Source: Gammaproteobacteria bacterium (GTDB lineage Bacteria; Pseudomonadota; Gammaproteobacteria; UBA4575). Taken from it: a stretch of 64,000 bases of DNA. The position numbers were made by a program, and so were the translations under genes. This document shows, piece after piece, positions 6,169-23,619 of the stretch. Under the pieces are notes generated by a model, which was not told the DNA's origin, did no database searches, and was given only the letters and a program-made list of their open reading frames with translations. Every line of letters begins with the position of its first letter. The first letter of the stretch is position 1. Location: the NCBI GenBank assembly GCA_965222615.1, contig CBDCUI010000009.1, forward strand, positions 768,001 to 832,000. The letters run 5' to 3'.

Positions 6169-6177
6169 ACAATCCCT

Positions 6178-7005
6178 ATGAACTTAAAAGGTACACTTGA
6201 TATTGCTGGACGCTCAAACACAGGACTAGTGCGTGCAAACAATGAAGACAAAATAGGCGAAGATCAAGAAATTGGTTTAGTCGTACTAGCAGATGGTATG
6301 GGTGGCTATAAGGGTGGAGAAGTTGCAAGCCGTATTGCAGTTAATACTATTTTAGAAGAATTACGTACAGAAATTCCTAATCTCATACCAGGAGAAATAG
6401 ACGAACAAACTGGGTATACAAAGGAAAGTTTAGCTGCGCGTAAATCTATTGTTAAAGCCAACGAATCAATTTTTACAGTAAGTACAAGTGAACCACAATA
6501 TCGTGGCATGGGCACAACACTTGTAATGGGAATCTTTTACGATAACCAAATCACTATTGCACATGTCGGTGACTCAAGGATGTATCGTTATCGAGATGGA
6601 AATTTTCAACAAGTAACAGTAGATCATACTCTGTTACAGGAACTCGTTGATCGTGGTTTTTATACGCAAGAAGAAGCAAACTCATCGCTCAATAAAAATT
6701 TAGTCACGCGTGCACTAGGCATTGAAGGTAGTATCGCAGTAGATATCAAAGAAGATTTGGCAATGCCTGATGACATTTACTTGCTATGCTCCGATGGTCT
6801 GACAGATATGGTCGATGATCAGGAAATTCATGCAACGGTAACGGCATTTAAGGATAATCTTGATGAATTGGCGGATAAGTTGATTGCAATTGCTAATGAG
6901 AATGGGGGCCGAGACAACGTTTCGGTATTATTAGCAAAACCAAATAAAGAGTTTCCTGGTAAGAAAACTTGGAAGAAAAAGTTTAGTAAATTTCTCCACA
7001 AGTAG
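6178..7005 (+). CDS. PP2C-family Ser/Thr phosphatase (Stp1/PppA-like)
   Basis: RANNED, LADGMGG, HVGDSR, LCSDGL, GGRDN. Confidence 0.93.
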   Translation: MNLKGTLDIAGRSNTGLVRANNEDKIGEDQEIGLVVLADGMGGYKGGEVASRIAVNTILEELRTEIPNLIPGEIDEQTGYTKESLAARKSIVKANESIFTVSTSEPQYRGMGTTLVMGIFYDNQITIAHVGDSRMYRYRDGNFQQVTVDHTLLQELVDRGFYTQEEANSSLNKNLVTRALGIEGSIAVDIKEDLAMPDDIYLLCSDGLTDMVDDQEIHATVTAFKDNLDELADKLIAIANENGGRDNVSVLLAKPNKEFPGKKTWKKKFSKFLHK

Positions 7006-7014
7006 AATTGTGAC

Positions 7015-7971
7015 ATGCCTAAATTAATTTTAAGCGTCGATGATAAGATCATTGACGAATTCAATATAGATAAAGACACTGTCACCATCGGTCGACGAAC
7101 AGACAATGATATCTGTTTGGATAATCTTGCGATCAGTGGTTATCATTCTCAAATTACTACTGTGCTCAATGATTCTTTTTTGGAAGATTTGAACAGCACA
7201 AATGGGACATTTGTAAACTCTAAAATTGTCAAAAAGCATGCATTGAAAGATGGCGATATTATCGATATCGGAAACCATCGTATTAAATATATCAATCATC
7301 TTGCCACTAGTTCAGCCAATAGCGAATTTGAAAAAACAGTGGTAATAAGCCCCAACTACAATGAGAAAAAAATTGATGCTTCGATTGAAAACTTAGAAAG
7401 TGAAATTGAAGCGCTTATCGATACAAAAGAAGATGCCGACAATGACTCTCAAGATAGCAATAATAATGAACAAGCCGTTGCACTGATCGATGCAATCTAT
7501 GATGGACATGAAGATACCTCTCTAAAAATACCATCTATAGAAGATTCACCAGCTTCAGAAGAACCAGAGCTCAAAAAAGAATCATCTGCTGAAAATTTAG
7601 CTGATGAAAAATTAAGTTCTGAAGAAATGGGCCCTGTAGAAGCTACTATAGAAAAATCATCACCTAAAAAAGAAACTCCTTCCAAATCAGATGATAATGA
7701 AAACAAACTAGGCCGTATTCAAATTCTCAGTGGCAGTAATTGTGGTAAAGAATTAACTCTCGATAAGACTTTAACAACCTTAGGCAAGCCTGAGGTCGCG
7801 GTAGTTGGCATCACTAAACGCCGCAGTGGTTATTTCATCGTACATATCGATGGCAGTGAAGGTAATGCCTCTAGATTGAATGGTGAAATTATTAAAGGCA
7901 AAGCCCAGCCTCTAGAAGATCATGACATCATCGATGTCGCTGGGATTAAGTTAGAGTTTTTTGTCGAATAA
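7015..7971 (+). CDS. FHA-domain protein (N-terminal FHA, acidic linker, C-terminal FHA-like domain)
   Basis: IGRRTDND, SGYHS, DLNSTNGTFVN; second FHA-like fold at the C-terminus. Confidence 0.9.
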   Translation: MPKLILSVDDKIIDEFNIDKDTVTIGRRTDNDICLDNLAISGYHSQITTVLNDSFLEDLNSTNGTFVNSKIVKKHALKDGDIIDIGNHRIKYINHLATSSANSEFEKTVVISPNYNEKKIDASIENLESEIEALIDTKEDADNDSQDSNNNEQAVALIDAIYDGHEDTSLKIPSIEDSPASEEPELKKESSAENLADEKLSSEEMGPVEATIEKSSPKKETPSKSDDNENKLGRIQILSGSNCGKELTLDKTLTTLGKPEVAVVGITKRRSGYFIVHIDGSEGNASRLNGEIIKGKAQPLEDHDIIDVAGIKLEFFVE

Positions 7972-8006
7972 TCTCGAAGTATTTTTCATTAAGCTGTTTG
8001 AAACAA

Positions 8007-8510
8007 CTATAACTTATAAGTGACTGCTTTTGAGTCAAAGCATACTAGCTTGTGTGTTTTTACACTGTACTTAAATTTATGCTTTAAAAGCCTTAGCAAA
8101 TTAGATAATAACTCATTAACTGAATTAACCATAACATCAACAGTTAAAGCCCCTTCAAGCAGGACCCCTTCAAGCCCACCTTTTTGATTTACCACTGGCA
8201 CAGAGCTAACCCCAGCATCTCTCATATGTGCAATTGTCTCTATTATGTAGTCGTCTTCTACGGCAGTTAATATTTCATTACTAATAACATACTTCACAGC
8301 AACGTCATTCAGATTTATCTCATTGATCAACATATCAGTCACGACATCCCTATCTGCTAACGCGCCTATAGGTAAGTGTTGATTATCCTTATATTCAACT
8401 ACGACAATATCCCCAACGTGATTGTTACGCATAGTTTGAGCTGCTTTTTGTATTGAGTCGTCAGGTTGGCATATGACTACATTTTGATTTCTTAATTTGT
8501 CGATATACAT
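8007..8510 (-). CDS. CBS-domain protein, possibly degenerating
   Basis: AAQTMRNNHVGDIVVV...DRDVV and MRDAGVSSVPVV CBS pair; a short tandem duplication gives LEGVLLEGAL. Confidence 0.75.
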   Translation of the reverse strand: MYIDKLRNQNVVICQPDDSIQKAAQTMRNNHVGDIVVVEYKDNQHLPIGALADRDVVTDMLINEINLNDVAVKYVISNEILTAVEDDYIIETIAHMRDAGVSSVPVVNQKGGLEGVLLEGALTVDVMVNSVNELLSNLLRLLKHKFKYSVKTHKLVCFDSKAVTYKL

Positions 8511-8582
8511 AGTTTCTTACCCTTTAACTTTTAAGAGAACGTCCTTGTTCATTAGTTGTCCGTAGTATTTTTTACCAAAATA

Positions 8583-9275
8583 TTATTTAGCTGGCACAAA
8601 GATTGCTGCACGAATCGGCGGTAAAGGATTACCCATGGGATCAAGATCATCATGATCAGTAGTTAGATCTGTTATCCATGATGTATCACCAAGCATTGTC
8701 TCCATAGGAAGATCATGTATAGCCAACGCAATATGAACATCTGCCTTGAACCCATGACCTCGTTTTAATCCAACATCACTATTCTTGCCCAGTCCTTTAT
8801 TTATGTGTATTCCCTCTGGTATTTTTCCTGCAACTGTCTTGGCATGAATATTGACCACGCCATTGCCCATTCCATCGTCGGTACTAATTGCACTGCCTGC
8901 ATAATAAACTGCTGTTTGTGTGTCTGGATTTGAAATATCACTAAGAGCACACTTTGTTAATACTTCTCCATCTGGACCTTTCACTACAGTTTCATCATCG
9001 CACTTGTTTGGTTTGTTAAATATGATAAACCAAGCGGTAACGGGTACACCTGGATTTGGCACTAATGACATAATATTCGCTTTTAATTCATTTTTTTTAC
9101 GAAATAATGTCGCGGCACCTGTATATAGTGAACTCTCACTAACACCACCTTGACTACCATCAAATGTAAGCACATCTGCTGCTTGATACGCTAATTTCAT
9201 ATCGCCAGAGGAAGCATGAGCTGGAGAGCAAATAAATATTGCGGTAATAAATGAAATTAAAAATATTTTTTTCAT
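8583..9275 (-). CDS. Secreted hypothetical protein (cassette cargo 1)
   Basis: Sec signal MKKIFLISFITAIFICSPAHA; WFIIFNKPNKC...C motif; preceded by shared leader copy 1. Confidence 0.85.
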   Translation of the reverse strand: MKKIFLISFITAIFICSPAHASSGDMKLAYQAADVLTFDGSQGGVSESSLYTGAATLFRKKNELKANIMSLVPNPGVPVTAWFIIFNKPNKCDDETVVKGPDGEVLTKCALSDISNPDTQTAVYYAGSAISTDDGMGNGVVNIHAKTVAGKIPEGIHINKGLGKNSDVGLKRGHGFKADVHIALAIHDLPMETMLGDTSWITDLTTDHDDLDPMGNPLPPIRAAIFVPAK

Positions 9276-9424
9276 AAGTTATTCCCCTTCTTTTCTAATA
9301 AAAATTTTATAAAGTTATGAAAATTAGTGAATGCTGTTTCCAGCATTCAGGTTTACTTGAGCAAAAATTTATTTGCTTAAGTTACTAGTAAAGATGGGAG
9401 ATAGATAAAATTGTCAGAAAAAAT
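9276..9424 (-). repeat. Shared promoter/5'-leader module, copy 1
   Basis: Aligns along its length with 10147-10294 and 18927-19074 (ccttcttttctaat...attttataaagttatgaaa...gtaaagatggg.gata...ttgtcagaaaa). Confidence 0.95.
9392..9418 (-). promoter_or_regulatory. Predicted ECF-sigma promoter TCTGACA-N15-CATCT
   Basis: Minus strand tctgaca attttatctatctcc catct; motif recurs at four other intergenic sites in the locus. Confidence 0.8.
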
Positions 9425-9633
9425 TTTTGAGGCTAGTGAAAAGACAGATGTTTGGTACGGTTGCTTGTGCCAATAATGGTATTCAGTGGTACACAAGTTA
9501 TCTCAGTGGGTTTCAGAGTGGCCCGTAATTGACACATTGATTCAGATTAGCCTTTATGCGGCCTACCGTACTGAACAAACCGATACTTCGCTACTCCTGA
9601 AGTTCTATACCCTGCATTCAGAAATGCCCAACC

Positions 9634-10146
9634 TTAGTCATCGTCGCTTCTGTCATTATCTTCGGAGTTTAACAAGTCCAGGCGTCGGCCCTCATAGGTA
9701 ATGAATCCGAATGGAAACTCTACGTCTGGCGTACCATTCAAATCTGGAAAATCTTCGCTATTGGCAGCGTTCACGAAATACTGTTTTATACCTATGTCAC
9801 CCTTCAGAATATCGTTGTCGAGCTTCAGCTGTAACGTCGCCAACGTTATGTGCTGTTGCACTCCGGTACTGTCGTAATGGATATTGATTAGTTTAACCAG
9901 GATATTCTTGCGACTAATTTTTTCCCAGTTTCCATATGCCACTGAATCAAATCCATCACTGAAATCTGAAGTGTCCACCGACGTCGCGGTGCCATCCTGA
10001 TGTAGTGTTAAGATACGATGAAACAGGAGGTCATCTAAAATCGAAACATTACCAGGGAATACGCCAACCAGATTCGAATCCGCATCAGCACTTAATGTGA
10101 TACACAGAAATAGAATTGTCGATAAAAAACGGACTATTATTTTCAT
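9634..10146 (-). CDS. Secreted hypothetical protein, probably beta-barrel/lipocalin-like (cassette cargo 2)
   Basis: Signal MKIIVRFLSTILFLCITLSADA; LTLHQDGT...YGNWEK beta-rich pattern; preceded by leader copy 2. Confidence 0.8.
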   Translation of the reverse strand: MKIIVRFLSTILFLCITLSADADSNLVGVFPGNVSILDDLLFHRILTLHQDGTATSVDTSDFSDGFDSVAYGNWEKISRKNILVKLINIHYDSTGVQQHITLATLQLKLDNDILKGDIGIKQYFVNAANSEDFPDLNGTPDVEFPFGFITYEGRRLDLLNSEDNDRSDDD

Positions 10147-10294
10147 CTGAACTCCCCTTCTTTTCTAATAAAAATTTTATAAAGTTATGAAAATTGATAA
10201 ATACTGTTACCAATTTTTACGTTTGCTTGAGAAAATGTTTAATTACTCAAGTTACTGGTAAAGATGGGGGATAGATGAATTTGTCAGAAAAATT
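10147..10294 (-). repeat. Shared promoter/5'-leader module, copy 2 (promoter 10262-10288)
   Basis: Minus strand tctgaca aattcatctatcccc catct; same spacing to ATG as copies 1 and 3. Confidence 0.95.
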
Positions 10295-10364
10295 TTTATT
10301 ATTTTATGATTTAAAATAACCAAGAAGGCAGAAATAATATTTTGGGCTAGCAAAATACAGATGC

Positions 10365-11030
10365 TTATTGCATAACCACTAATTTATAGCGGGCTTTCGA
10401 TGTTCTTCCTTTTAAATCTGCTATCCTTACAGTTAACAAGTGTTGACCGCTCGGAAGGCTCATTTTTTTAATATTGAGTTGATTAGATTTAATCTTTGAT
10501 GATCTCAAAATACGTTCAGTTATGTCTGCATTCAATAAGCCGTATGTCAATTGAAAACTCTTTGCATCTATTTCTGAGTTTGGTGATGCTTCAAACGAGA
10601 GCTTAAACGCAAATGGTGATGTAATATTTTTTATATCTTTAGGTTTTTCGAGTGTAATTATTGGAAATTCTGGATCAATTGACATTTCTACTGCTTCCAA
10701 GGAAAGAAGTTGCTCCTTTGTCAAAGAAGCTATGTACTGATTTTCCGCATTAACATCTTTTTGGCTAATCAGCGGAAGCTGTGTAGGAACTAATTGTGTA
10801 TACAGCAAAATAGATACTGATAAAACTATAGTGGCTGCAATAGCAAAATAGGTAGGAGTGCTTAAATGTTTATTACGATCACTGGGTTCATCTGCATTTA
10901 TCTGGTTATTTACTTTTTGCATCAACTTGGATTTGAATGACTCAATGTCTGTGTCACTCACTAACGTTTCAAAATGCTTTTGTTCACGTTCTAAAGTCGT
11001 TTTCAGTTGTTCTTCAGCAGAATCACTCAT
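10365..11030 (-). CDS. Putative anti-sigma factor (short cytoplasmic N-terminus, one TM helix, periplasmic Ig-like domain)
   Basis: Directly downstream of the ECF gene; TM YFAIAATIVLSVSILLY; C-terminal beta-rich domain (LPSGQHLLTVRIADLKGR). Confidence 0.7.
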   Translation of the reverse strand: MSDSAEEQLKTTLEREQKHFETLVSDTDIESFKSKLMQKVNNQINADEPSDRNKHLSTPTYFAIAATIVLSVSILLYTQLVPTQLPLISQKDVNAENQYIASLTKEQLLSLEAVEMSIDPEFPIITLEKPKDIKNITSPFAFKLSFEASPNSEIDAKSFQLTYGLLNADITERILRSSKIKSNQLNIKKMSLPSGQHLLTVRIADLKGRTSKARYKLVVMQ

Positions 11031-11047
11031 ATTAATCTTCTACAAAT

Positions 11048-11629
11048 TTAACTAATCGTACTAATGTTTAATAAAACATCTTCACCACAAAATTTTTTTA
11101 TTAATTCTTGTAATTTCTTTCTTGCTTGTGAAACATATTCACGTGTAGCACCATAAGTCTTATCCATAAAAACTGCCACATCTTTTAGGCTCCATCCATT
11201 CAGCACTGATAATTCAATGATCAAAGCTTCATCATAAGAGCGCTTTCGAAGTGCGCTGATGGCTTCACCCAAACAATTTTCCAATAATAAATCATTAACA
11301 GTATACGTGCTCAAAATTTCTTCTAGTTGGTCGTTTTCCAACGAGTATTCTTTAATTGTGGATTGTTCTCGTAAATATTCGTTGAATGAGTTAAAAAACA
11401 TTCTCCATAAATAAGGGCGTATTTGATTTGCTTTTGCGATGAGCTTCGGTTTATTAGCTATTTTTAAAAATACGTTTTGAATAATATCCTCCGCATCGGC
11501 ATTGGATACACCCCTTTTATATAGATGACCCAGATACTTCTGCGCTAATTCATCATATAAATACGAAATGGCTTGAATCACTTGTTTCTTTTCCCCCAAT
11601 AAGTATTTTTTTATCAAAATATCATCCAT
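11048..11629 (-). CDS. ECF (group 4) sigma-70 factor
   Basis: Region 2 DAEDIIQNVFLKI...YLWRMFFN and region 4 GWSLKDVAVFMDKTYGATREYVSQARKKL; 193 aa. Confidence 0.92.
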   Translation of the reverse strand: MDDILIKKYLLGEKKQVIQAISYLYDELAQKYLGHLYKRGVSNADAEDIIQNVFLKIANKPKLIAKANQIRPYLWRMFFNSFNEYLREQSTIKEYSLENDQLEEILSTYTVNDLLLENCLGEAISALRKRSYDEALIIELSVLNGWSLKDVAVFMDKTYGATREYVSQARKKLQELIKKFCGEDVLLNISTIS

Positions 11630-11686
11630 TGACCATACTCATATTAGTGTTATCAAACATCAAATTATCTACGTATATTTAATTAT

Positions 11687-11714
11687 AGTTGCCTTTATGA
11701 AGTAAAATGTCAGA
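11687..11714 (-). promoter_or_regulatory. Putative autoregulatory ECF promoter TCTGACA-N16-CAACT upstream of the sigma gene
   Basis: Minus strand tctgaca ttttacttcataaagg caact; one mismatch and +1 spacer relative to the other sites. Confidence 0.6.
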
Positions 11715-11834
11715 ATATATTGCTTGTCAACAAGAAATATCTAATCTTTTTTCAAATCACGAAGAATTGGTTGGAGGCTATTATGCAATTAGTTACAAAT
11801 TGGTTACAACTCAGAATCCTGATATTAGTTAGAA

Positions 11835-11861
11835 TCTGACAGTTTCATCAAGTAACCATCT
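11835..11861 (+). promoter_or_regulatory. Predicted ECF promoter TCTGACA-N15-CATCT for the ompA-caspase operon
   Basis: tctgaca gtttcatcaagtaac catct; same boxes and spacer length as the leader copies but a different spacer sequence. Confidence 0.8.
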
Positions 11862-11897
11862 ATGACCATCGATTCCATGTCAGTTCACTTAAAAATA

Positions 11898-12461
11898 ATG
11901 GAATTTATAAAGTTATTTGTAACATTTGCATCCTGTTTAATAGGGACAATTATATTTGCTCAGGATGTTGATGTAATCATGGATAGTGGGACCATTGTAG
12001 AAGATTTACTAAAAGAGGATGGGATGACTCGCGGCATAAACGTTCAAGCAGTCAGTACCCCTTCATCTGATAAAACAAAGTCAGTAAGCAAAAGCGACGA
12101 AAAAAGCCCAAGTGTAGTTGCATTAAATATCCAATTTCATTTTGATTCAGCAAAATTAACAGAATCGGCTATTCTTCAATTAAATGAATTAGGTAAAGCT
12201 ATCACATCAAAACAACTTAACCATTATACATTCGAACTGATGGGTCATACCGACAGCGTAGGAAACCATGAATATAATCAATGGCTTTCTGAACAACGCG
12301 CTCTATCAACTAAGCACTATCTAATCAAAAATTTTAATGTAAAAAAGAATAAGTTGATTACATATGGTTATGGCGAAGAAAAACCACTGTTATTAAATGA
12401 TCCTACAAATAGCATTAATAGAAGGGTTGAAATACGAATACTTACAAGAACAAATAATTAA
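11898..12461 (+). CDS. OmpA/MotB C-terminal (peptidoglycan-binding) domain protein, secreted
   Basis: IQFHFDSAKL, GHTDSVG, NQWLSEQRA, GYGEEKP, NRRVEI; the ATG at 11862 abuts the -10 box, so MEFIKLF (11898) is the preferred start. Confidence 0.9.
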   Translation: MEFIKLFVTFASCLIGTIIFAQDVDVIMDSGTIVEDLLKEDGMTRGINVQAVSTPSSDKTKSVSKSDEKSPSVVALNIQFHFDSAKLTESAILQLNELGKAITSKQLNHYTFELMGHTDSVGNHEYNQWLSEQRALSTKHYLIKNFNVKKNKLITYGYGEEKPLLLNDPTNSINRRVEIRILTRTNN

Positions 12462-12490
12462 TATTCAAAAATAATAAATTGGGACCGCTT

Positions 12491-13912
12491 ATGAAATTAT
12501 ACAACAAAATAATTTTTTGTATTGCAGTCTTAAATGGGCTGTTTATTTCATGTGAAAATGTTATTGCTGCACAAAAAGCATTGTTGGTAGGTGTTGGTGA
12601 ATATCAAATACCAAACAAAGAATTACCAGGTATTGATGTTGACATACAGTTGATGAAAGAGATACTGGCAAGATTAGGTTACGCAGAAAGCGAAATAAAA
12701 ATATTACATAACAAAGATGCAACATTGCAAAATATAAAAAAAGCGATTACAAATTGGCTTGTCGACGGCGTACAAAAAAATGACCGAATTGTTATATATT
12801 TTGGTACTCATGGGAGCAGAATATACGACGTTGACGGAGATGAAGAAGATCAAGTAGATGAAGTCTTACTCGCCCATGATGCGAAGTTTTTCACAACAAA
12901 ACATGGGCGCACACTTAAAAATGTAGTTATTGATGATGATTTAGCAAATTGGCTTGCTAATATTCCAAGTGAAAATATTTTTGTTTTAGTTGATGCATGT
13001 AATAGTGGCTCGGTTACAAGGAGTGTTAAATTATCAAATTTATCCTTAGGTGTTGAGACCGCAGCAGCTAAATTCTTTTACTATGACGGCATTCCAGATG
13101 AGAGTGGCTCGACATTTACTAGGTCACTAGTCAATCGAAGTCTTGATCAAAACGTTAATTATATTGCTATTTCAGCTGCAAAAGATCATGAAATGGCCCT
13201 TTCAACTGAACAAGGAAGTTTTTTCACACTTGGTATTTTTGATGGAATAAACAAAGCATCTAACGGATCAGGCACAATTACTGTCGAGCAATTACATCGC
13301 CATGCAGATAGCTATATTGCTAAAACAATCTCAAGAGAAAAAAGATATCACCCACAACTTCATGGTAATGAATATTTAGCAAAGAAAAAATATAAACTAT
13401 TCAAGTTTATGCAAGGGCATGGCTCAAAATGGCAATCATTAGAAAAAATATCCAACCAGGTACAAGATTTAGAGTTATCTTTAAATCAAGAAGAATATGC
13501 CTTACAAGACAGTGTATATATCGCTGTAGATCTTCCTAAAGTAGGTTATCTTAATATAGTTTCAGTAAATGCATACGATCAGGGCACCATTCTTTTCCCA
13601 AATAAATTTAACTTGGATAATTATGTAAATAGTACAAACTTAACTATTCCATCAAAAAACATGCCGTTTAAGCTCGCTGCGGTTAAACCCACCGGACCAA
13701 CATTGATAGTTGGGTTCTTATCAACTGCACCGATAAATCTTTATGAACTGAGTTATGAAGGTCGTGATATCGGTGGTGCTTTAAATAAAGCTTTTGCAAC
13801 ACTATCTTACAGTGGTATTCGTGCTATAACTTTAGAATCAGAAAAAACGAAGCAAAACTATGAAGATGTTTTATACAGCAAATCTGTATACACAAATATT
13901 AAAATGAAATAA
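12491..13912 (+). CDS. Secreted caspase-family (peptidase C14, metacaspase/orthocaspase-like) protease with C-terminal DUF4384-like domain
   Basis: Signal peptide; KALLVGVGEY, YFGTHGS (His) and LVDACNSG (Cys); C-terminal GYLNIVSVNAYDQGTILFPN pattern. Confidence 0.9.
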   Translation: MKLYNKIIFCIAVLNGLFISCENVIAAQKALLVGVGEYQIPNKELPGIDVDIQLMKEILARLGYAESEIKILHNKDATLQNIKKAITNWLVDGVQKNDRIVIYFGTHGSRIYDVDGDEEDQVDEVLLAHDAKFFTTKHGRTLKNVVIDDDLANWLANIPSENIFVLVDACNSGSVTRSVKLSNLSLGVETAAAKFFYYDGIPDESGSTFTRSLVNRSLDQNVNYIAISAAKDHEMALSTEQGSFFTLGIFDGINKASNGSGTITVEQLHRHADSYIAKTISREKRYHPQLHGNEYLAKKKYKLFKFMQGHGSKWQSLEKISNQVQDLELSLNQEEYALQDSVYIAVDLPKVGYLNIVSVNAYDQGTILFPNKFNLDNYVNSTNLTIPSKNMPFKLAAVKPTGPTLIVGFLSTAPINLYELSYEGRDIGGALNKAFATLSYSGIRAITLESEKTKQNYEDVLYSKSVYTNIKMK

Positions 13913-15271
13913 ATGTATACAAAAATCACCATTATTTTAGTTTTTTTATTATCAATAAATATTTCATATGCAACAAATCGCTATGCGCTCGTTATAGGCA
14001 ATTCTGATTATCCGTTTGGTCAGCTAAGGAATCCTAGTAATGATGCACAAGATGTTGCCTCAGAATTTGAGAAATACGGATTCGATGTAGATTTAAAAAC
14101 CAATGCGACCGCATTCCAACTAAAACAATCCTTGGATAGCTTACAAAGTAAGCTGCAGTCCAGTAGAGGAATTGGCATCATTTATTTCGCTGGGCATGGC
14201 GTGCAGTTTCAAGCCGAAAACTTTTTACTCCCTGTCGATGTTTCAACTACTTCTGCAACCGAACTTAAACGTACAGCCTTATCACTAAATACGGTCGTGA
14301 ACACGTTAGACCAGGCGCAGAACAAACTCAATTTAGTCATTCTCGATGCCTGTCGTAATAATCCATTCAAGAGTAGTTCACTTACGAGTGTTTCTCGAGG
14401 TCTACAAGCCGAGGCTAAAAAAGAACAAGATGGCTTAGCCCCGGTAGCGATCAGTGTGTCGTCCGGAACGGTGTTTTGGTATGCCACGCGTCCTGGGGAT
14501 GTGGCTTTAGACGGTAGTGGTCGCAATAGTCCTTTTACTTCGAGTCTGCTGCAAGTCCTTAATAATCATGCTGTACCGGCACGCTCGATTATCAGTCAAG
14601 TTGCAATACGAATGCGTAATTTAAAAATTAATCAACAGCCCTGGCAAGAAGGTATTTGGTTAGAAGACTTTCATTTTGATGAGTCAAGTAACCATAAAAA
14701 TGTCCCCGTGCAAATCGCTAAATATGATTCATTTCAGGAAGATATATATCGTGACTATATTAAGAATTGCAAAAAGTCTGGTAAAAAATGTAAACATTTA
14801 GCTAGCGTCGAAAAAATAATTGAGGAGTCGGATAAAAAAACAACTATAGCAAACACAAAACTCGAAAATGCTGCACCTAGCAAAATTGATGGATACGATG
14901 ATTGGCTTGGGCAGTGGCAATGCACGTGGGCGCATAATGATAATTCGAATAAGGGAACAAGCATTGTTAAATTTTACAAATTTGAAAAAAATATTCTATA
15001 TGGTACTTCGAGTCTTTCGACATGCCCTCAAGCTTCTAAATTTAAATTGGATACTACTGAATCACCTTTGAAATATACATTACTCCCCTGCTGTGCATCT
15101 TGGACTTGGAAAACCACGATGTGTAATGCAATGCTTAGAATAACAATCGAAAAAATTCCTAAATTAGGAGAACAACAAGCTATGAAGTCCTCATACACTA
15201 CAGATTTTTTTAACCTTCCTTCAAGCAGTCTTAGTATAGGTGGCGAACAAACTTGTATAAAAATTTACTAG
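13913..15271 (+). CDS. Secreted caspase-family (C14, paracaspase-like) protease with Cys-rich C-terminal domain
   Basis: Signal peptide; RYALVIGNSDY, LRNPSNDA, YFAGHG, ILDACRNNP, YATRPG, NSPFT. Confidence 0.92.
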   Translation: MYTKITIILVFLLSINISYATNRYALVIGNSDYPFGQLRNPSNDAQDVASEFEKYGFDVDLKTNATAFQLKQSLDSLQSKLQSSRGIGIIYFAGHGVQFQAENFLLPVDVSTTSATELKRTALSLNTVVNTLDQAQNKLNLVILDACRNNPFKSSSLTSVSRGLQAEAKKEQDGLAPVAISVSSGTVFWYATRPGDVALDGSGRNSPFTSSLLQVLNNHAVPARSIISQVAIRMRNLKINQQPWQEGIWLEDFHFDESSNHKNVPVQIAKYDSFQEDIYRDYIKNCKKSGKKCKHLASVEKIIEESDKKTTIANTKLENAAPSKIDGYDDWLGQWQCTWAHNDNSNKGTSIVKFYKFEKNILYGTSSLSTCPQASKFKLDTTESPLKYTLLPCCASWTWKTTMCNAMLRITIEKIPKLGEQQAMKSSYTTDFFNLPSSSLSIGGEQTCIKIY

Positions 15272-15280
15272 GAGCTATAT

Positions 15281-15314
15281 TGAATAAACGCTTTTGGCCA
15301 ATAGCGTTTATTCA
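15281..15314. repeat. 34-bp palindrome tgaataaacgct-tttggccaat-agcgtttattca
   Basis: Perfect 12-bp arms 10 nt after the caspase-2 stop codon; related hairpins at 17402, 17478 and 19113/19394. Confidence 0.75.
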
Positions 15315-15356
15315 TGTAAATACATTTTTTATATAAAACCAAGATTTTATAAGAAA

Positions 15357-15384
15357 AAAATAGGCGCCCGAAGGCGCCTATTTT
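15357..15384 (-). terminator. Rho-independent (probably bidirectional) terminator
   Basis: aaaataggcgcc-cgaa-ggcgcctatttt between convergent caspase-2 and porin genes. Confidence 0.9.
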
Positions 15385-15408
15385 GGGTAAAACTAGAGTC
15401 TTATTCAG

Positions 15409-16815
15409 TTAGAATAACTGAACCAAACCCACTGCGACCATTTCAAGATCACCTCCAACACCATTACCCGCTGAATTGATACCGAAATCATAATTGGCGT
15501 TTCTGTCATTAGAGACTTCAGAGTAGATTACACGTAATTCGGTGCCGGCTGGGAAGGTGTAGAACAAACCAATGTTATACGCATCACCACTTGAACTGCT
15601 GTCGGATAGACCATTATTACAGGTACTACTACCTGCACCGGAATCACAATCCAAATCATCAGCATCCATATAGGAGAAGCGGATATCAAACGGTCCTGGA
15701 AAGTTGTGTTTACCCGATATCATCCAAGCATCGCGTTCCACTTCGTTTCTATTGCCAGCTACACCGTTACCACCGAGTATACCAGCACCTGTAGCACAAT
15801 CTTTATGAACATACTTAATTTCTTCATACATGCCGGAGAACCAAGTTGAGTGGCCATTGCCCCAATCGTGAATGTAACGACCCGCGATACGCCATGAATC
15901 ATCATCAGAATCTCTACAGCCAAAATCGGCTGCAGCCCAATCATCATGTTTTTCATAAGTGAGGGCACCCCAAATGGTGGATCTACCTTTACCGACGTCG
16001 TTTTCGTAGGCAACCCCCATAGACCAAATACGTGGGTCTATTTTTTTCGTAGTACCAGAAGCCGTGGTTACCTGCACATCGCCATTACCAGAAAAGTAGT
16101 TCAAGCCAGGGTCGTTATGAGCATTGGAGGTCGCAATACGGGCTGTAAAGCCATTCCAATTAGGTGAGAACCACTGTACCACACCGTTTTGACGTCGGTT
16201 AAAACCATTGTTTTGAGGACCAAAGTTCGCACCAAAGGGACCAAAATTGGTCGGTCCACCAAAACCACCACCGTTATCAAAACCGAAGCCACCGTTAAAG
16301 AAACGGGTACCGAAGCCGACTGAGCCCATGATGGAGCTGGTAGAATCCGCACCTGCATCACCGAAAGGGTCAATCCATGGAAATACCATTTCATTATGAG
16401 GTAGCAACCAATGAGCAAACATCACTTCGCCCCAAACACCAGCCAAGCCTAGCTTACTGTTACGATTACAGAAATCATTAAAGCCAAAAATGCCTGAACC
16501 AGTAAGTCGGTTAATAAAAAGGAATTGTTCACAACGAAAGGTTGCTATGATCGGGGTTTCGCCAACAGTAAAACCGGTATCGATTTGTGCATCAAAACCT
16601 AAATGCGCAACATTAGCACTGATACGAGACATATCTCTGTCATCCCCTGGGCCATAATAGTTTTCAGACTCTACCCATTCATATGAGTAGTTCTGATATG
16701 CATAAATAGTCCAGTTTGAGTTAGCATTACCGCCACTTATCCCTCCAGCAAATGGTGCTAGTGGTAACGCTACAAGGACGAATGCAAAAGCAGCTCTTAT
16801 TAGATTAGTTTTCAT
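15409..16815 (-). CDS. Outer-membrane porin (Gram-negative porin-like), Cys-containing
   Basis: Signal peptide; NRNSKLGLAGVWGEV, RRQNGVVQWFSPNWNGFT, amphipathic strands, terminal ...VGLVQLF beta-signal. Confidence 0.85.
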   Translation of the reverse strand: MKTNLIRAAFAFVLVALPLAPFAGGISGGNANSNWTIYAYQNYSYEWVESENYYGPGDDRDMSRISANVAHLGFDAQIDTGFTVGETPIIATFRCEQFLFINRLTGSGIFGFNDFCNRNSKLGLAGVWGEVMFAHWLLPHNEMVFPWIDPFGDAGADSTSSIMGSVGFGTRFFNGGFGFDNGGGFGGPTNFGPFGANFGPQNNGFNRRQNGVVQWFSPNWNGFTARIATSNAHNDPGLNYFSGNGDVQVTTASGTTKKIDPRIWSMGVAYENDVGKGRSTIWGALTYEKHDDWAAADFGCRDSDDDSWRIAGRYIHDWGNGHSTWFSGMYEEIKYVHKDCATGAGILGGNGVAGNRNEVERDAWMISGKHNFPGPFDIRFSYMDADDLDCDSGAGSSTCNNGLSDSSSSGDAYNIGLFYTFPAGTELRVIYSEVSNDRNANYDFGINSAGNGVGGDLEMVAVGLVQLF

Positions 16816-17075
16816 GTAATTTCCCTCCCGTGCAATTTACAGGAGCTTTTCATACGCTCCTTTAAATTGTTATTGATTTTTATTTGAAAGCTTTTAATTA
16901 AAGCTTTATGCGCAAATAAGATTTAACTTATTAACATTAGATTTTACATTAAAGTGGATAATTGATGATCAATGAATATTTATTTTTTATTGACTAGTTT
17001 ATTGACTTAATGCAATTCTTAATTTTTTTTAAAGCTCATAGTTTTTTTATTGAGAAATATAAGATATTGCTAAGC

Positions 17076-17393
17076 AATAAATTTTACGAAGGAAAGATAT
17101 TATGTCTGCTTATGAGATTTAAATAAAACTTTCGCAGCACTATCTTATAGTAGTATTCGAGCTATAACTTTGGAATCAGAAAGATAAAATTAAATGTAAC
17201 ACAAAAACCTTTAAGTTATACAGTGCATCATGCATCGACGTTGTATTATAGACAATGCACAATAAAAGTATTTACTATCGACCAGATTACTACTTCTCAA
17301 GAACAACTCATTTTCAATGCCACTTATACTAATAGCCAACACAACGGTCTCCTACTTGAGCGTGGTAAACAAACTTGTATAAAAATTTTATAA
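17076..17393 (+). pseudogene. Relic of a second caspase pair: caspase-1 3' segment fused to a divergent caspase-2 C-terminus
   Basis: 17119-17183 reads LNKTFAALSYSSIRAITLESE (cf. LNKAFATLSYSGIRAITLESE); the next frame reads KIKLNVTQKPLSYT...GKQTCIKIL* (cf. KFKLDTTESPLKYT...GEQTCIKIY*). Confidence 0.85.
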
Positions 17394-17517
17394 AACATTG
17401 TTGAACATCTGCTATGAGTGGTTACCAGACATTTCAAGTTTGTAAACCCTTGATTCCAACAAATTCGTCCCTAAATTTGCCCGCCTTCAGCCAATAGCGG
17501 CCACTAACTCTGTTATA

Positions 17518-17546
17518 AAAAAGCCCCACTATAAAGGTGAGGCTTC
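17518..17546 (-). terminator. Probable terminator of the beta-helix gene
   Basis: aaaaagccccac-tataaag-gtgaggctt hairpin with a U-tract on the minus strand. Confidence 0.6.
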
Positions 17547-17573
17547 GTAATTTAGTCGGATGACTATCTTGTT

Positions 17574-18926
17574 TTAATCGTCGTTGCCAACAAGCCTGAC
17601 TTCATTGTTGATACCTAGATCAACTACCAGTAGACAGCCCGGTGTGCTGCATGATGCGCCTGGATACACATTTACAACTTCTATTGGACCTGGAGCCACA
17701 GCAGTTACAAGGTTGTTGAAACTTGGTCCGGTAATTGGCGCACCATTGCTACCATTTTTTTCGGGCCCATTCGTGTTATCAAAAAACACATCAACATCAT
17801 TGTCTTGTAATTTTGTTTTGAGGAATCTGTTATTGCCACTAAAACTTTGTTCAACGTTGACCCCAAAGTCGCAGTTGCGTACCTCATTATTTTTCCACAC
17901 GGTATCAACTTCTTCGTTATTAGCACAAAGTCCATTGAAGCAAGCATGTATATAATTATCCTTAATTCGTGCACGAGTATTTTTCTTAGCAGAATCAGCC
18001 CCTATAGCAAAAACCGAAGCTGCTACGCTCGTGGCAATAGCGCAACCTTGATTACGAAATAAACTACCAGGTATTACCTCTTTTATACCATTTAACATGG
18101 TATTGCCTTTTACCTTGGTGTCTTCAGTGCCAAGCATTTGAACAGCATAATTGCCATATCCATTAAACAAGTTATTTTTGATCACAGTATTCTTAACTTG
18201 ATCCTCTTCTTCATTTTCGGTAACTACTTCAAAAGAAAAGGTATTAAAATTGAAGCAAATAGAACCTCCACCTAATAGCCTCACACCCGCAGAATTTATC
18301 CCTGTTATATTTGTCATTTTATTGTTCTTAACTTGAAGACGGTTAACAGAGCCTGCATTCACCCCAAAGGTGACATTATCGAAATAATTATCCTTAATGA
18401 CGATATTATTAAACGAGCCCGGTATATAATTATTTTCATCACAGTTTAAACTCGGACTATTATAATTAGTAATTGACACAGCTCGGTTAAACAGCTCGAA
18501 CTTAAGATCATGTATTTTAATGTTTTCAATGGTGCCGTTCAGAGGCGTAGGGCCGATCAAAAGCCCTCTATTTCTAAATTCTGTCGTAAAAGGATCATCA
18601 GAAAGAGGGCTACCAGGAAGACAACCAGGAGTATTTTGACCACATTCGGTACCACGCAATACAGTCCAATCATTATTAGCACCTTTTATGGTTAGGTTTG
18701 AGCGTTGAATAGAAACAAACGTATCATCAAATTGGCAAATTCCTTTGAGCTCAACGACACGATTGTTTGTATTGTCAACTGCAGCTTGAATTTTCGCTCT
18801 ATCAGATGCGATGTCGTTTTCACACTGGACCACTTGCATATTGCCGTCATTGTCGTCAGCGAAAGAAAAACTTGGTACCACCAAAAGTAATGCCAAGCCT
18901 ATTTGAATAAAGTGTATGGTTTTCAT
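17574..18926 (-). CDS. Secreted right-handed parallel beta-helix protein (pectate-lyase-like fold; cassette cargo 3)
   Basis: Signal peptide; DRAKIQAAVD cap helix; repeated IKDNYF/IKNNLF/VKGNTM/IKDNYI beta-helix rungs; preceded by leader copy 3. Confidence 0.85.
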   Translation of the reverse strand: MKTIHFIQIGLALLLVVPSFSFADDNDGNMQVVQCENDIASDRAKIQAAVDNTNNRVVELKGICQFDDTFVSIQRSNLTIKGANNDWTVLRGTECGQNTPGCLPGSPLSDDPFTTEFRNRGLLIGPTPLNGTIENIKIHDLKFELFNRAVSITNYNSPSLNCDENNYIPGSFNNIVIKDNYFDNVTFGVNAGSVNRLQVKNNKMTNITGINSAGVRLLGGGSICFNFNTFSFEVVTENEEEDQVKNTVIKNNLFNGYGNYAVQMLGTEDTKVKGNTMLNGIKEVIPGSLFRNQGCAIATSVAASVFAIGADSAKKNTRARIKDNYIHACFNGLCANNEEVDTVWKNNEVRNCDFGVNVEQSFSGNNRFLKTKLQDNDVDVFFDNTNGPEKNGSNGAPITGPSFNNLVTAVAPGPIEVVNVYPGASCSTPGCLLVVDLGINNEVRLVGNDD

Positions 18927-19074
18927 CTGAACCTCCCTTCTTTTCTAATGGAAATTTTATAAAGTTATGAAAGTTAACTAATATTGTTACCAGCATTTAG
19001 GCTTACTAGTGCAAACGCTTAATCGCTTAAGCTATTAGTAAAGACGGGGGATAAATTAAATTGTCAGAAAATTT
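18927..19074 (-). repeat. Shared promoter/5'-leader module, copy 3 (promoter 19042-19068)
   Basis: Minus strand tctgaca atttaatttatcccc cgtct; rest of module aligns with copies 1 and 2. Confidence 0.93.
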
Positions 19075-19125
19075 TCATTTAAAAAATTAAAAAGACAGCA
19101 TCTATAGCAGCGAATGTCTACTTTG

Positions 19126-19381
19126 GGCTGCCGATTCAATCGGTCAATGCAACACCTTGCTAAACTTTTAGTAATAAAGAGGTTGACTCAAACGGATGAC
19201 CATTTAGTGTTGAGTTGTTTTTGGATGAACCGGTTACATTAAATACTGCATTATTACTTGCTTCGAGCCATCTTTTATTGATCTACTCTTAAGATGTTGA
19301 TGTAATTGCATTTCTCTTAGCTTTTGCAGCCTTTTTTCACTCTATTTCAAAGTGTTGCATCGACCTATTGAGACCACAGCC
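19126..19381. mobile_element. Internally deleted IS30-family-like element (MITE-like)
   Basis: 30-bp terminal inverted repeats ggctgccgattcaatcggtcaatgcaacac / ggctgtggtctcaataggtcgatgcaacac (24/30 identical); ...GGTCGATGCAACAC resembles IS30-family ends; no transposase inside. Confidence 0.7.
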
Positions 19382-19476
19382 GTTAGCGGACATTTTAAAA
19401 TTTTATTTGAGTTTCCCAACTTGTTCCTCATTTAAGCCCACCTAACTTTAATCAGTTCCAACATCCATGTTATATC

Positions 19477-21171
19477 TCATATTCGCATATCCCTAGGCTC
19501 ACGCTCAGGCGGTACCAGCTTGGGTACTGCCGCTAATAATTTCTTTGTATAGTCATGTTGTGGGTTGGTTAGAACCTCAACCACTTCTCCCTCTTCCACA
19601 ATCTTTCCTTGATACATTACCGCAACACGGTCTGCAAAATAGGCAACTACAGACATGTTGTGGGTGATAAACAAATAACTAATTCCATATTTGTCTTGTA
19701 AGTTATTTAACAAATCTAGAATTTGTGCTTGTACGGATACATCTAACGCACTTGTGGGTTCATCGCATATAATAATTTTAGGATCCACTGCTAAGGCCCT
19801 AGCAATACAAATGCGCTGTCGTTGGCCGCCTGAAAATTCATGTGGGTAACGCAGATGTGCATCTTTAGACAAACCTACTTGTTCCAAAAGCTCTAACACG
19901 CGTTGTTTACGTGCTACCGAATCCGGCAATACATTTAGTGCCTTCATTCCTTCTTCAATAATTTCACCTATTAACATGCGCGGATTCATCGAAGAATAAG
20001 GATCTTGAAATACAATTTGCAAATTAGTGCGCTGCTCTAGTAGTTGTTGTTTATCGATGTCATGAATCGGCAATCCTAAATAATGAACCTCGCCCGAAGT
20101 CGGCTGTACCAGTCGTAAAATGCCTTTTCCAACTGTTGTTTTACCGCTACCAGACTCTCCTACCAAGGCTACTGTTTGACCCGGTGGAATTTCCAGTGAC
20201 ACACCATCCACTGCTTTGACATAGCCAACTGTGCGTTTAAAAATTCCCTTTTGAATGGGGAAATGCACTTTTAAATCAGTAACTCGTAAAGTGTCATTTT
20301 CATCAACTTTTAAATCCTCTATCTTTTGATTAGAAATGTCATTTGCTGCCAGTAAAGGCTTACCACGTTTTTCGATAGCCGGTAATGCGGCGAACAAGTC
20401 CCAGCTATATTGATGTTGCGGGGCGGAGAAAAATATTTGATTACTGGATTGTTCAACAATTTTCCCCTGTTTCATCACCGCTATGTGATCTGAGACCTGT
20501 TTAACCACTGCCAAATCATGCGTAATGAAAAGAATTGCCATTTTAAATTTCTGCTGCAATTCATTAATTAAATCCAATACGCGCGCCTGTACCGTAACAT
20601 CCAATGCAGTAGTAGGCTCATCTGCAATTAATAATTTCGGCTCACACGCCAAAGCAATCGCAATCATCACACGTTGTTTCATACCGCCAGATAACTCATG
20701 CGCAAAAGTATCAATAGTGTGTTTAGGATTTTTAATATTAACAGCATCGAGTAAATCCAAAGCACGTTGTCGAGCCTGGGCCTTACTCATATCTTGATGT
20801 CGAATCAATACCTCAGCTATTTGTTTACCAACTTTCACCACTGGGTTTAATGAAGTCATCGGTTCTTGAAAGATCATCGAAATACCACTACCGCGTATAT
20901 CACGCATCTCACGTTCTGGTAGGGTTAAAAGATCTTTACCTTCAAAATGCACTGCACCTGTAGTTACCTGAGCAGATTCAGGCAATAAACGAATCACTGA
21001 AAGTGCAGTAACCGATTTTCCACTCCCAGATTCCCCTACCAAAGCAAAAGTCTCACCTTCATTAATTTGAAAGCTGACTTTATCTACGGCAGTAACTTTG
21101 CGTGTACCGGTTTCAAATACTGTGCTTAAATTTTCCACACGTAGTAATGGAGACTGCTTTGATTCTGACAT
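19477..21171 (-). CDS. Peptide ABC transporter ATP-binding protein (fused double ATPase)
   Basis: Two GESGSGK Walker A motifs, LSGGMKQR/FSGGQRQR signatures, DEPT. Confidence 0.95.
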   Translation of the reverse strand: MSESKQSPLLRVENLSTVFETGTRKVTAVDKVSFQINEGETFALVGESGSGKSVTALSVIRLLPESAQVTTGAVHFEGKDLLTLPEREMRDIRGSGISMIFQEPMTSLNPVVKVGKQIAEVLIRHQDMSKAQARQRALDLLDAVNIKNPKHTIDTFAHELSGGMKQRVMIAIALACEPKLLIADEPTTALDVTVQARVLDLINELQQKFKMAILFITHDLAVVKQVSDHIAVMKQGKIVEQSSNQIFFSAPQHQYSWDLFAALPAIEKRGKPLLAANDISNQKIEDLKVDENDTLRVTDLKVHFPIQKGIFKRTVGYVKAVDGVSLEIPPGQTVALVGESGSGKTTVGKGILRLVQPTSGEVHYLGLPIHDIDKQQLLEQRTNLQIVFQDPYSSMNPRMLIGEIIEEGMKALNVLPDSVARKQRVLELLEQVGLSKDAHLRYPHEFSGGQRQRICIARALAVDPKIIICDEPTSALDVSVQAQILDLLNNLQDKYGISYLFITHNMSVVAYFADRVAVMYQGKIVEEGEVVEVLTNPQHDYTKKLLAAVPKLVPPEREPRDMRI

Positions 21172-21188
21172 TTCTTATTACTTAGCGA

Positions 21189-22604: not shown

Positions 22605-22641
22605 GATCTAATTTAATCTCACAACTAATTCAATCTAACAA

Positions 22642-23619
22642 CTAGTTTAATCTCACTCTGGGATCAACAATGGTGTATGAAATATCGGTCAACAATAAAC
22701 CGATGATATATAAAACGGCACCTAGGAATACCATCGAACGCACTATAGAAAAATCTTGTCGGTTGATGGCATCGATAGTGTAGCTTCCGAGTCCAGGTAT
22801 ACCAAAAAAGGACTCCGTGATTAAACTGCCCATAAATAACAACGGCAAAATCACCACTACGCCGGTAAGAATAGGTATTAACGCATTGCGTAAAACATGT
22901 TTAAACAACACCATTTGTTCAGATATGCCTTTGGCACGCGCAGTACGCACATAGTCTTTATTAATTTCTTCAAGAAAAATAGTTCGATACCAACGTGTAC
23001 TTGAACCAATACCGCCAATAATGCCGATTAATACTGGTAGCACTAAAAATTTGACCCCAAACACTCCAGATTCAAACCCAGAAATCGGCACTACCCGCAA
23101 TATTTTCCCCATAACGAACTGCCCACCAATAATATAAAACAGGCTAGAAATAGACATGAGTGCCACGCAAATCACTACCGCCCAATAATCGATATAGGTG
23201 CCACGGAAAAAGGCGATTAATAAAGCAAGCGAAATGGTAACCAGTAACCCCACAATTAATTGTGGTACTGCAATCGCTAAGCTGGGCCACATTCGTTGAC
23301 TAATATCAAAACTGATATCTCGACCACTATCGGAACGACCAAAATCAAATACAAACAAACGTATCGATTTCGTATAAAAAATTGTCTTAGTAAACTTTTC
23401 TACGCCTTTTGCTTCGCTATTACAAAAAAGCGGATAGTGATAACCACGCTCGGTTTTCCAGTCTTCGATCTGCTCTTCCGTTACATGTTTTTGCCCTAAA
23501 AACATACGCGCCATGTCATCAGGCGAGTTCACCACAAAAAAGAGCAAAAATGTAAGTATGTTTACACCGATAATTATAGGAATGGCATATAAAATACGGC
23601 GGATAATGTAGGCAATCAT
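22642..23619 (-). CDS. Peptide ABC transporter permease (DppB/OppB-like)
   Basis: YIIRRIL, DYVRTARAKG, KHVLRNAL, DPRVRL. Confidence 0.93.
   Translation of the reverse strand: MIAYIIRRILYAIPIIIGVNILTFLLFFVVNSPDDMARMFLGQKHVTEEQIEDWKTERGYHYPLFCNSEAKGVEKFTKTIFYTKSIRLFVFDFGRSDSGRDISFDISQRMWPSLAIAVPQLIVGLLVTISLALLIAFFRGTYIDYWAVVICVALMSISSLFYIIGGQFVMGKILRVVPISGFESGVFGVKFLVLPVLIGIIGGIGSSTRWYRTIFLEEINKDYVRTARAKGISEQMVLFKHVLRNALIPILTGVVVILPLLFMGSLITESFFGIPGLGSYTIDAINRQDFSIVRSMVFLGAVLYIIGLLLTDISYTIVDPRVRLN

Follow-up and report, generated by a model that had tools for sequence, protein, structure and literature searches.

In the genome of Gammaproteobacteria bacterium (UBA4575; assembly GCA_965222615.1), an island of about 11.5 kb brings together genes for a sigma factor, a membrane protein and two predicted secreted caspases, and the question it raises is whether these proteases control the sigma factor or only belong to its regulon. 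The island occupies approximately positions 7973-19476 (genes from 8007) of a 64,000-nucleotide stretch, hereafter the window, which was taken from contig CBDCUI010000009.1 (positions 768,001-832,000, forward strand). Its core consists of a gene for a sigma factor of the extracytoplasmic function (ECF) type and one for a single-pass membrane partner on the minus strand, divergent from a plus-strand operon that encodes an OmpA-like protein, caspase-1 (Peptidase C14 plus DUF4384) and caspase-2. This gene order and these domains, noted in a preliminary description made from the sequence alone, were borne out by Pfam and NCBIfam. Three further minus-strand genes for predicted secreted proteins, here called cargo genes, share a promoter motif with the core. 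We give a probability of about 0.5 to the reading that the island is a complete envelope-to-transcription switch, in which the exported caspases would act on an anti-sigma factor and an RseP-type step would then free the sigma factor. Three genomes recur below: G000 is the window's own, G001 belongs to the same genus, and G014 is a metagenome-assembled genome from another genus of the same family.

The sigma gene (11048..11629, minus strand) encodes a very divergent protein of 193 amino acids. It scored 24.8 bits against Sigma70_r2 (cut-off 24), 25.1 bits against Sigma70_r4_2, slightly below the cut-off of 25.7, and 49.3 bits against the NCBIfam sigma70-ECF model TIGR02937 (cut-off 42.9). With sigma domains 2 and 4 only, a length of about 200 amino acids and a match to the ECF superfamily model, it has the make-up of an ECF sigma factor. 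It fell into no named NCBIfam subfamily, the best specific model being SigZ with 52 bits against a cut-off of 168.65. A word-indexed search of 5.8 billion proteins returned nine proteins at E<=1e-10, its own included, all of them at least 64% identical; the eight others are on ENA/Logan contigs, one of which is 44.8 kb long. Among 40 relatives of the window's genome an ortholog was present only in G014 (69% identity in the genome search, 68% by BLASTP), and the other matches were unrelated ECF sigma factors with identities of no more than 28%.

The partner gene (10365..11030, minus strand) starts 17 nucleotides downstream of the sigma gene and encodes an anti-sigma candidate of 221 amino acids with one hydrophobic helix, which matched no Pfam (E<=0.01) or NCBIfam family. 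The AlphaFold model (mean pLDDT 86) predicts two cytoplasmic helices (residues 5-25 and 28-45), a transmembrane helix (60-78), two short helices between residues 90 and 112 and, in the periplasmic part, an immunoglobulin-like (Ig-like) beta-sandwich at residues 124-219, referred to here as the PCD. Residues 1-60 lack the Cys that the HxxxCxxC signature of zinc-binding anti-sigmas would require, containing none at all, and gave no match to zf-HC2 or any other Pfam family; the partner is therefore not an anti-sigma of the zinc type. We then modelled the complex of the sigma factor with partner residues 1-60, using a mark that is reached by 58 of 80 solved complexes and by 2 of 110 mismatched pairs. 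The three runs gave ipSAE values of 0.83, 0.85 and 0.83, as against 0.00 for the best control, and they shared at least 95% of their contacts with a partner pLDDT of at least 76. The modelled contacts lie on sigma residues 14-59, 112-143 and 177-188, that is, on both sigma domain 2 and sigma domain 4. The models thus support binding of the partner to the sigma factor as an anti-sigma, the role that the preliminary description had assigned to it, and the pass may in part be owed to likeness to solved sigma/anti-sigma complexes.

Caspase-1 (12479..13912, plus strand) matched Peptidase_C14 with 75 bits and DUF4384 with 45 bits. Caspase-2 (13913..15271, plus strand) follows with no intergenic gap; it matched Peptidase_C14 with 121 bits and carries a Cys-rich C-terminal region of about 200 amino acids that fits no family. 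The catalytic His-Gly and Asp-Ala-Cys columns, shared by 17/17 aligned caspase domains, are intact in both proteins, and by their sequence they are members of Peptidase C14, clan CD. Both N-termini run from a basic to a hydrophobic stretch and then to a small-x-small pattern, which by eye resembles a signal peptide, so that the intact dyads and predicted export noted at first sight stood up. The first gene of the operon (11862..12461, plus strand) encodes a predicted peptidoglycan-binding protein with an OmpA C-terminal-like domain (Pfam OmpA, 69.2 bits; cut-off 27.2), for which all NCBIfam anchor-lipoprotein models stayed below their cut-offs. PADLOC-DB 2.0 returned no system-specific match for the island, only the generic caspase model PDLC02987 (54 and 33 bits) and ZorB/MotB on the OmpA domain.

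The motif that would be read by the free sigma factor was examined at several scales. In its form CTGACA-N15/16-CRTCT it occurs four times in the window, compared with 0.14 expected, and none of 100 shuffles reached four. Each of the four sites lies upstream of a gene or operon and points at it, one at the ompA operon and the others at the genes that begin at 8583, 9634 and 17574 in the coordinates used here. Of the five instances of the strict form TCTGACA-N15-CRTCT in the 3.1-Mb genome, four are in the island. At the ompA-caspase operon the site (11835..11861, plus strand, TCTGACA-N15-CATCT) ends with a -10 element that directly abuts the first ATG at 11862, and the real start of the OmpA-like protein is for this reason probably a downstream ATG, at 11877 or 11898. 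The probable autoregulatory promoter of the sigma operon (11687..11714, minus strand) has the exact -35 word followed by a 16-nucleotide spacer and CAACT. Of the five units that one motif was claimed to precede, four therefore have it in the window, namely the three cargo genes and the ompA operon, and the sigma operon has it in imperfect form only. The sigma site is exact in G014 (TCTGACA-N16-CATCT), where the ompA site is also kept (N15, CATCT); the presence of the motif at both operons there agrees with the view that sigma and anti-sigma form a self-contained unit with its own promoter motif. In G014 it occurs twice more downstream of the anti-sigma gene. Genome-wide, 4/7 matches in G014 and 3/6 in G000 are at the locus, with a reversed-pattern control giving 0 and 2, respectively. 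Possible additional regulon members (C8:116852, C8:942582 and C9:1101286 in G000, and three in G014) were rejected, as these sites lacked the leading T/C context or were intragenic and their number was within the chance range (about 0.7 estimated for the strict form).

The motifs of the three cargo genes are parts of one promoter-plus-leader of about 161 nucleotides, which is repeated on the minus strand up to the start codon with 79-80% identity and has only three full copies genome-wide. Copy 1 (9265..9425) contains TCTGACA-N15-CATCT at 9392-9418, copy 2 (10135..10295) has its motif at 10262-10288, and copy 3 (18915..19075) contains TCTGACA-N15-CGTCT at 19042-19068. Since these promoters are one duplicated element they count as a single observation, which leaves the ompA site as the sole independent match in its own genome. 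The products are a 230-amino-acid protein with a signal-like N-terminus as read by eye (cargo gene 1, 8583..9275), a 170-amino-acid protein (cargo gene 2, 9634..10146) and a 450-amino-acid protein (cargo gene 3, 17574..18926), all on the minus strand and all predicted to be secreted. They share no BLASTP similarity at E<=1, in line with the initial impression that they are unrelated. The first two matched no family in Pfam, NCBIfam or PADLOC, the atlas neighbours of cargo gene 1 all being annotated 'hypothetical protein'. The product of cargo gene 3 has no Pfam match and is probably a right-handed beta-helix, as its ten best family-bearing atlas matches all (10/10) belong to beta-helix families or that clan, with a top score of 0.97, which we take as a lead only. 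The word 'cassette', which the preliminary description used for these units, applies in a descriptive sense only: no integrase domain was found in the island proteins, and the repeat is an upstream promoter-plus-leader, not a downstream attC-like element.

The last ~45 nucleotides of the leader (9276-9322, 10147-10192 and 18927-18972) are near-invariant in the three copies and more conserved than its middle. They terminate in a strong purine-rich ribosome site and matched no Rfam family; this segment could be a translational control site. A conserved RNA structure in the leader was rejected, since in an alignment read by eye copies 2 and 3 show no compensatory changes that would preserve the two hairpins of copy 1. 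In G014, one of the two motifs downstream of the anti-sigma gene (13638-13663 of that locus) is followed by about 280 nucleotides with no open frame longer than 52 codons, perhaps as a promoter whose cargo gene has been lost or which drives a small RNA.

A common sigma-type promoter ahead of the caspase operon and the cargo genes is also what would be seen if the caspases were outputs and nothing else. On this explanation an unrelated signal or protease frees the sigma factor, the caspases and cargo form its regulon, and the PCD senses something else; remodelling of the envelope, or processing or activation of the secreted cargo, might for example be the task of the caspases. In the ECF reclassification it is cautioned that neighbouring genes may be targets and not regulators (PMC7826278), and clusters of caspase, OmpA and DUF4384 genes exist elsewhere with no sigma gene (0/4 fetched clusters contained one). 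We regard such a pure output role as somewhat unlikely, for the reason that it leaves unexplained why the sensor domain of the anti-sigma should sit beside caspase-clan genes in 14 of 16 places and be found fused to a homologue of caspase-1, as described in the following.

The link between the PCD and caspase-clan proteases is what most strengthens the switch reading at its weakest point; as a whole, the interpretation given in the preliminary description is partly supported. A search of 1.84 billion representatives with the partner profile gave 730 matches at E<=1e-3 and 281 at E<=1e-10. Only three of the 730 cover the cytoplasmic part, the remainder matching residues ~117-220 only. Proteins with a PCD are mostly 150-165 amino acids long; they have a signal peptide and share a conserved L-V/I-T/S-x-x-E stretch in addition to the Ig-like domain, for which neither Pfam nor NCBIfam has a model; a relationship to DUF4384 was rejected by profile-profile comparison (hhalign probability 0.6%, E 0.1). 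To judge from these sequences, the island's member of the family carries an anti-sigma stub and a membrane anchor where the signal peptide would be. We surveyed the genomic surroundings in two samples of 401 genomes each, both evenly drawn, the first from the phylum and the second from another class in it, with 8-19 kb fetched per place. PCD genes were present at 16 places in 13 genomes besides the window's. A C14 or TPR-CHAT gene lay within about 5 kb, often adjacent, at 14 of these places (12 genomes, 8/9 families), and of the remaining two, one had trypsin-like proteases and DUF4384 with no caspase and one had none of these. The neighbouring proteases mostly have signal-like N-termini, and in three genomes OmpA and a C14-DUF4384 protein are arrayed as they are in the island.

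Fusions point in the same direction. Among 17 of the 150 listed PCD matches, a set that includes all those longer than about 195 amino acids, one protein combines Peptidase_C14, DUF4384 and PCD (P0136) and two combine OmpA and PCD. The caspase part of P0136 is 36% identical to caspase-1 over 427 amino acids (E 1e-103), and the island's OmpA-like protein is 36% identical over 112 amino acids to the OmpA part of one of the OmpA-PCD fusions (P0082). When a class sample of 400 genomes was searched for loci like that of caspase-1, the best four each had at least two C14 genes, three of them had OmpA and one had a PCD. An envelope module of OmpA, exported caspases and DUF4384, sometimes with a PCD, is thus widespread.

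Some related envelope caspase clusters hold additional proteases or inhibitors. One (L032, in G406) contains two serpins, two others (L031 in G238 and L063 in G889) encode trypsin-C14-DUF4384 triple fusions, and at L053 (G669) a single protein unites papain-C1, DUF4384 and PCD. The N-terminal region of P0104 reads by eye as a trypsin-type protease fused to the PCD, with no Pfam match. Together these cases hint at multi-protease cascades with inhibitors.

The same census bears on a second alternative, in which the coupling is non-proteolytic or reversed: the PCD would be a caspase inhibitor or docking partner and no caspase would make a site-1 cut. In variants of this idea the anti-sigma would sense free as opposed to engaged caspase by partner switching, or would tether and silence the caspase at the inner membrane. 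In its free form the PCD is a small Ig-like domain that looks stable and is encoded 1:1 next to a protease, an arrangement often seen for inhibitor and immunity proteins, and the serpins at L032 indicate that such clusters do carry inhibitors. The PCD itself, on the other hand, has no similarity to known inhibitor families, and the closest characterised system, DdvA, is argued to act by proteolysis, although this is a proposal there as well (PMC11506125). We find this alternative quite unlikely.

Comparison with the relatives showed that the island has moved. In G001, the homologues of window positions 4873-7407 (kinase, phosphatase and FHA) and 19508-23999 (ABC transporter) are about 475 bp apart with no island between them. 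In G014 the same flanks are 2.5 kb apart, and the genome's own copy of the system is located about 310 kb away, beside an integrase fragment. The G+C content is 32-33% across 10-14 kb, compared with about 39% for the large contigs. By these sequence comparisons the island is horizontally acquired and mobile. A contig of run X1 that joins 7035 to 19696 was not accepted as an empty-site allele, as 21 letters on its shorter side are too weak. Next to the system in G014 (8203-8622 of that locus), a frame of 139 amino acids resembles by eye the C-terminal part of a tyrosine recombinase.

The G014 copy retains the divergent layout with identities of 68% for the sigma factor, 47% for the partner, 44% for the OmpA-like protein, 51% for caspase-1 and 43% for caspase-2. 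None of the window's cargo genes was found within the 20 kb of G014 examined. Instead, the final downstream motif there stands before an open frame exceeding 1958 codons, whose SpvB, FG-GAP, TcdB-middle and RHS domains make up an Rhs/Tc-like polymorphic toxin architecture. Core and promoter are thus kept while the cargo differs, which supports the notion of swappable outputs put forward at the outset, with two examples only. The recurrence of the system also speaks to the possibility that two unrelated sets of genes, the sigma/partner pair and the caspase operon, share an island by coincidence. The arrangement is indeed known from two genomes only; the same five genes, layout and motif, however, reappear at a different chromosomal site in another genus, and the PCD-caspase link is independent evidence, so that we hold a chance neighbourhood to be very improbable.

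Returning to the switch itself, we picture its steps as follows. The first ~45 residues of the partner would clamp sigma domains 2 and 4 and hold the sigma factor at the inner membrane. The exported caspases would act on the PCD or the juxtamembrane part of the anti-sigma, most likely as a site-1 cut, and the OmpA-like protein would probably hold them at the cell wall. A cascade of the two caspases, part of the preliminary description, is conjecture. Next, a cut within the membrane by the RseP-type M50 protease of this genome (Peptidase_M50, 236 bits) would free the sigma factor, which would read TCTGACA-N15/16-CATCT, raise the caspase operon and the variable secreted cargo, and probably raise its own operon too, giving positive feedback. 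Signalling would accordingly run from the envelope inwards. In canonical regulated intramembrane proteolysis of anti-sigmas, RseA is cut by DegS and then RseP, and RsiW by PrsW and then RasP. The proposed scheme has in common with this route a periplasmic site-1 cut, an M50 site-2 protease, release of the sigma factor and autoregulation; it would differ in that the site-1 protease is a clan CD cysteine protease encoded in the regulon itself and the sensor is a dedicated protease-partner module.

Several observations weigh against this reading. The caspase operon has a sigma-dependent promoter, and the caspases are therefore at least outputs. The three cargo promoters are not independent, and the sigma gene's own promoter is off consensus in the window (one extra nucleotide in the spacer and CAACT at -10). 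Rarity is another: in a pattern scan of 185,579 species genomes the only locus besides the window's own was that of G014, and none of the JGI metagenome contigs had a sigma-linked locus, so that the system is very rare. A single genus accounts for four of the 14 positive PCD places. By a local profile an ECF gene was found at 0/16 PCD places, and at none in the Pfam-scanned subset; the local profile likewise gave no sigma factor at any of the four caspase-1-type clusters elsewhere. On this evidence caspase/PCD modules normally function without a sigma factor. A fold search with the partner model returned only generic Ig-like, CopC, PKD and FN3 domains, so the predicted PCD fold looks like a generic Ig-like sandwich that offers no functional clue, and the PCD could equally be an inhibitor, an adaptor or a substrate.

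The nearest published counterpart is the DdvS/DdvA pair of Myxococcus xanthus, in which DdvA was described in 2024 as a transmembrane anti-sigma with a fused periplasmic TPR-CHAT part; autoproteolysis followed by RseP was proposed and is unproven, and DdvA truncated to lack TPR-CHAT is degraded in an RseP-dependent manner (PMC11506125). As far as that account goes, the island resembles DdvS/DdvA in having an ECF sigma factor, a single-pass anti-sigma, a caspase-clan protease on the periplasmic side, a proposed site-1 cut followed by RseP, and a regulon that is an accessory island, proteolysis being a proposal in both. The architectures differ. DdvA bears about 900 residues of TPR-CHAT on the anti-sigma and a zinc-binding three-helix-bundle cytoplasmic domain, whereas the island's anti-sigma, with its 221 amino acids and no CHAT or TPR match, has a PCD of about 100 residues and a two-helix N-terminus without Cys, and its counterparts of the protease part are two separate C14 caspases, which share a divergent operon with an OmpA-like protein. 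As outputs the island has secreted proteins in place of CBASS or CRISPR.

Associations of this general kind were catalogued in 2012 by Asplund-Samuelsson et al. (PMC3501461), whose main text reports OmpA domains in 14 metacaspase operons and sigma-70 in metacaspase operons of M. xanthus (four), Anaeromyxobacter, Haliangium, Sorangium, Ralstonia and Fibrobacter. The island resembles these operons in the association of C14 proteases with sigma factors and OmpA. The main text of the catalogue gives no anti-sigma sensor domain, promoter or mechanism, and the island sigma had no relative below 64% identity in our word-indexed search. CHAT, subtilase and carboxypeptidase genes have been noted around ECF54 (PMC8999054), and the main text of the ECF reclassification mentions neither caspase nor OmpA (PMC7826278).

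A third comparison, with the type III-E craspase, had been drawn in the preliminary description. There, Cas7-11/Csx29 cleaves Csx30 and thereby frees an RpoE-like sigma factor, and the C-terminal domains of Csx30 include a group that is DUF4384 (bioRxiv 10.1101/2022.08.17.504292). A caspase-clan protease is thus paired with a sigma-inhibitor complex in both, and DUF4384 occurs in that Csx30 group and in caspase-1. The analogy holds for the mechanism only, as the craspase is, by that account, cytoplasmic, RNA-guided and CRISPR-linked. The island has no cas gene, none of its proteins matched a cas, Csx or CHAT family, and its sigma factor scored 29.2 bits against CAS_III-E_sigma, for which the cut-off is 100.

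With sigma-70/metacaspase and OmpA/metacaspase operons (PMC3501461) and DdvA/DdvS (PMC11506125) in print, 'candidate new system' was too strong a term. The island is a rare, mobile, split variant of a known and mechanistically unproven kind, not a categorically new system. What is new is the association of PCD and caspases, the sigma/partner model, the mobility of the island and the motif kept in G014; among the matches listed in our literature search, no title or abstract described the PCD family or the split layout.

The rest of the island is less closely tied to this core. A CBS-domain gene at its edge (8007..8510, minus strand; Pfam CBS 53 bits) lies inside the inserted segment; neither G001 nor G014 has an orthologue of it at the corresponding site, and matches elsewhere were only 25-26% identical. 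Between caspase-2 and the next gene, a 12-bp GC-rich hairpin with T-runs on both sides (15357-15384) is likely a bidirectional terminator. Rfam gave no match at the leaders, and its only hits were weak sub-threshold small RNA matches at 15300-15428, which are due to this overlapping hairpin. The gene that follows (15409..16815, minus strand) encodes a predicted secreted protein of 468 amino acids with a C-terminal Phe that by eye is porin-like; it matched no Pfam or NCBIfam family, and no promoter motif was found in 16816-17573. Between this gene and cargo gene 3 the 3' ends of both caspase genes and the terminator are present a second time in decayed form (17118..17499, plus strand). This copy consists of direct repeats of the caspase-1 3' end at 17118-17182 (D2, 65 nucleotides, 89%), of the caspase-2 3' end at 17362-17388 (D3, 27 nucleotides, 93%) and of the terminator region at 17482-17499 (D11, 18 nucleotides, 83%). 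These remnants suggest past duplication and rearrangement within the island, with the porin-like gene inside an old duplication of the operon end.

Outside the island, positions 4663-7971 hold a conserved triad of a Ser/Thr kinase (with an N-terminal region of about 230 amino acids without Pfam match), PP2C and FHA. The triad adjoins oligopeptide-type ABC transporter genes in two relatives and belongs to the core genome. We rejected it as a part of the system, as it is a conserved flank in G001 and G014, where the island is absent from that site. Elsewhere in the window's own genome, a second accessory locus (L055, C8:27144-33399) encodes on one strand an ECF sigma factor, a membrane protein of 221 amino acids and an S8 subtilase, and on the convergent opposite side a barrel-like protein, an OmpA-like protein, a TPR-Peptidase_C14 protein and a lipoprotein. 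At E<=1e-15 its caspase was found in 0/24 same-family relatives, and the other 16 relatives gave one weak match (G034, 32% identity over residues 199-431, E 1.3e-17).

Exported caspase homologues are common in bacteria, but what they cut and to what end is obscure, and the release of an ECF sigma factor by a caspase-clan protease is unproven even for DdvA. The island is a compact split version of such an arrangement, with a sigma factor, a 221-amino-acid anti-sigma, two small caspases, an OmpA-like protein and defined promoters, and it is portable to a reporter host. Independently of the sigma switch, the PCD family with its 730 representatives may supply a partner or substrate domain to many C14, CHAT and trypsin-DUF4384 envelope modules. 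A bolder reading, which we advance tentatively and consider rather doubtful, is that the PCD is a module dedicated to being recognised or cleaved by the periplasmic caspase-clan proteases of bacteria and has here been grafted on an anti-sigma stub. Cell-wall or outer-membrane damage or attack would then set off an envelope 'caspase alarm' that leads to secreted weapons, which would be the Rhs/Tc-like toxin in G014 and the beta-helix and other secreted proteins in the window. If this is true, the island would offer, ready for use with a reporter, a natural read-out of what exported bacterial orthocaspases do.

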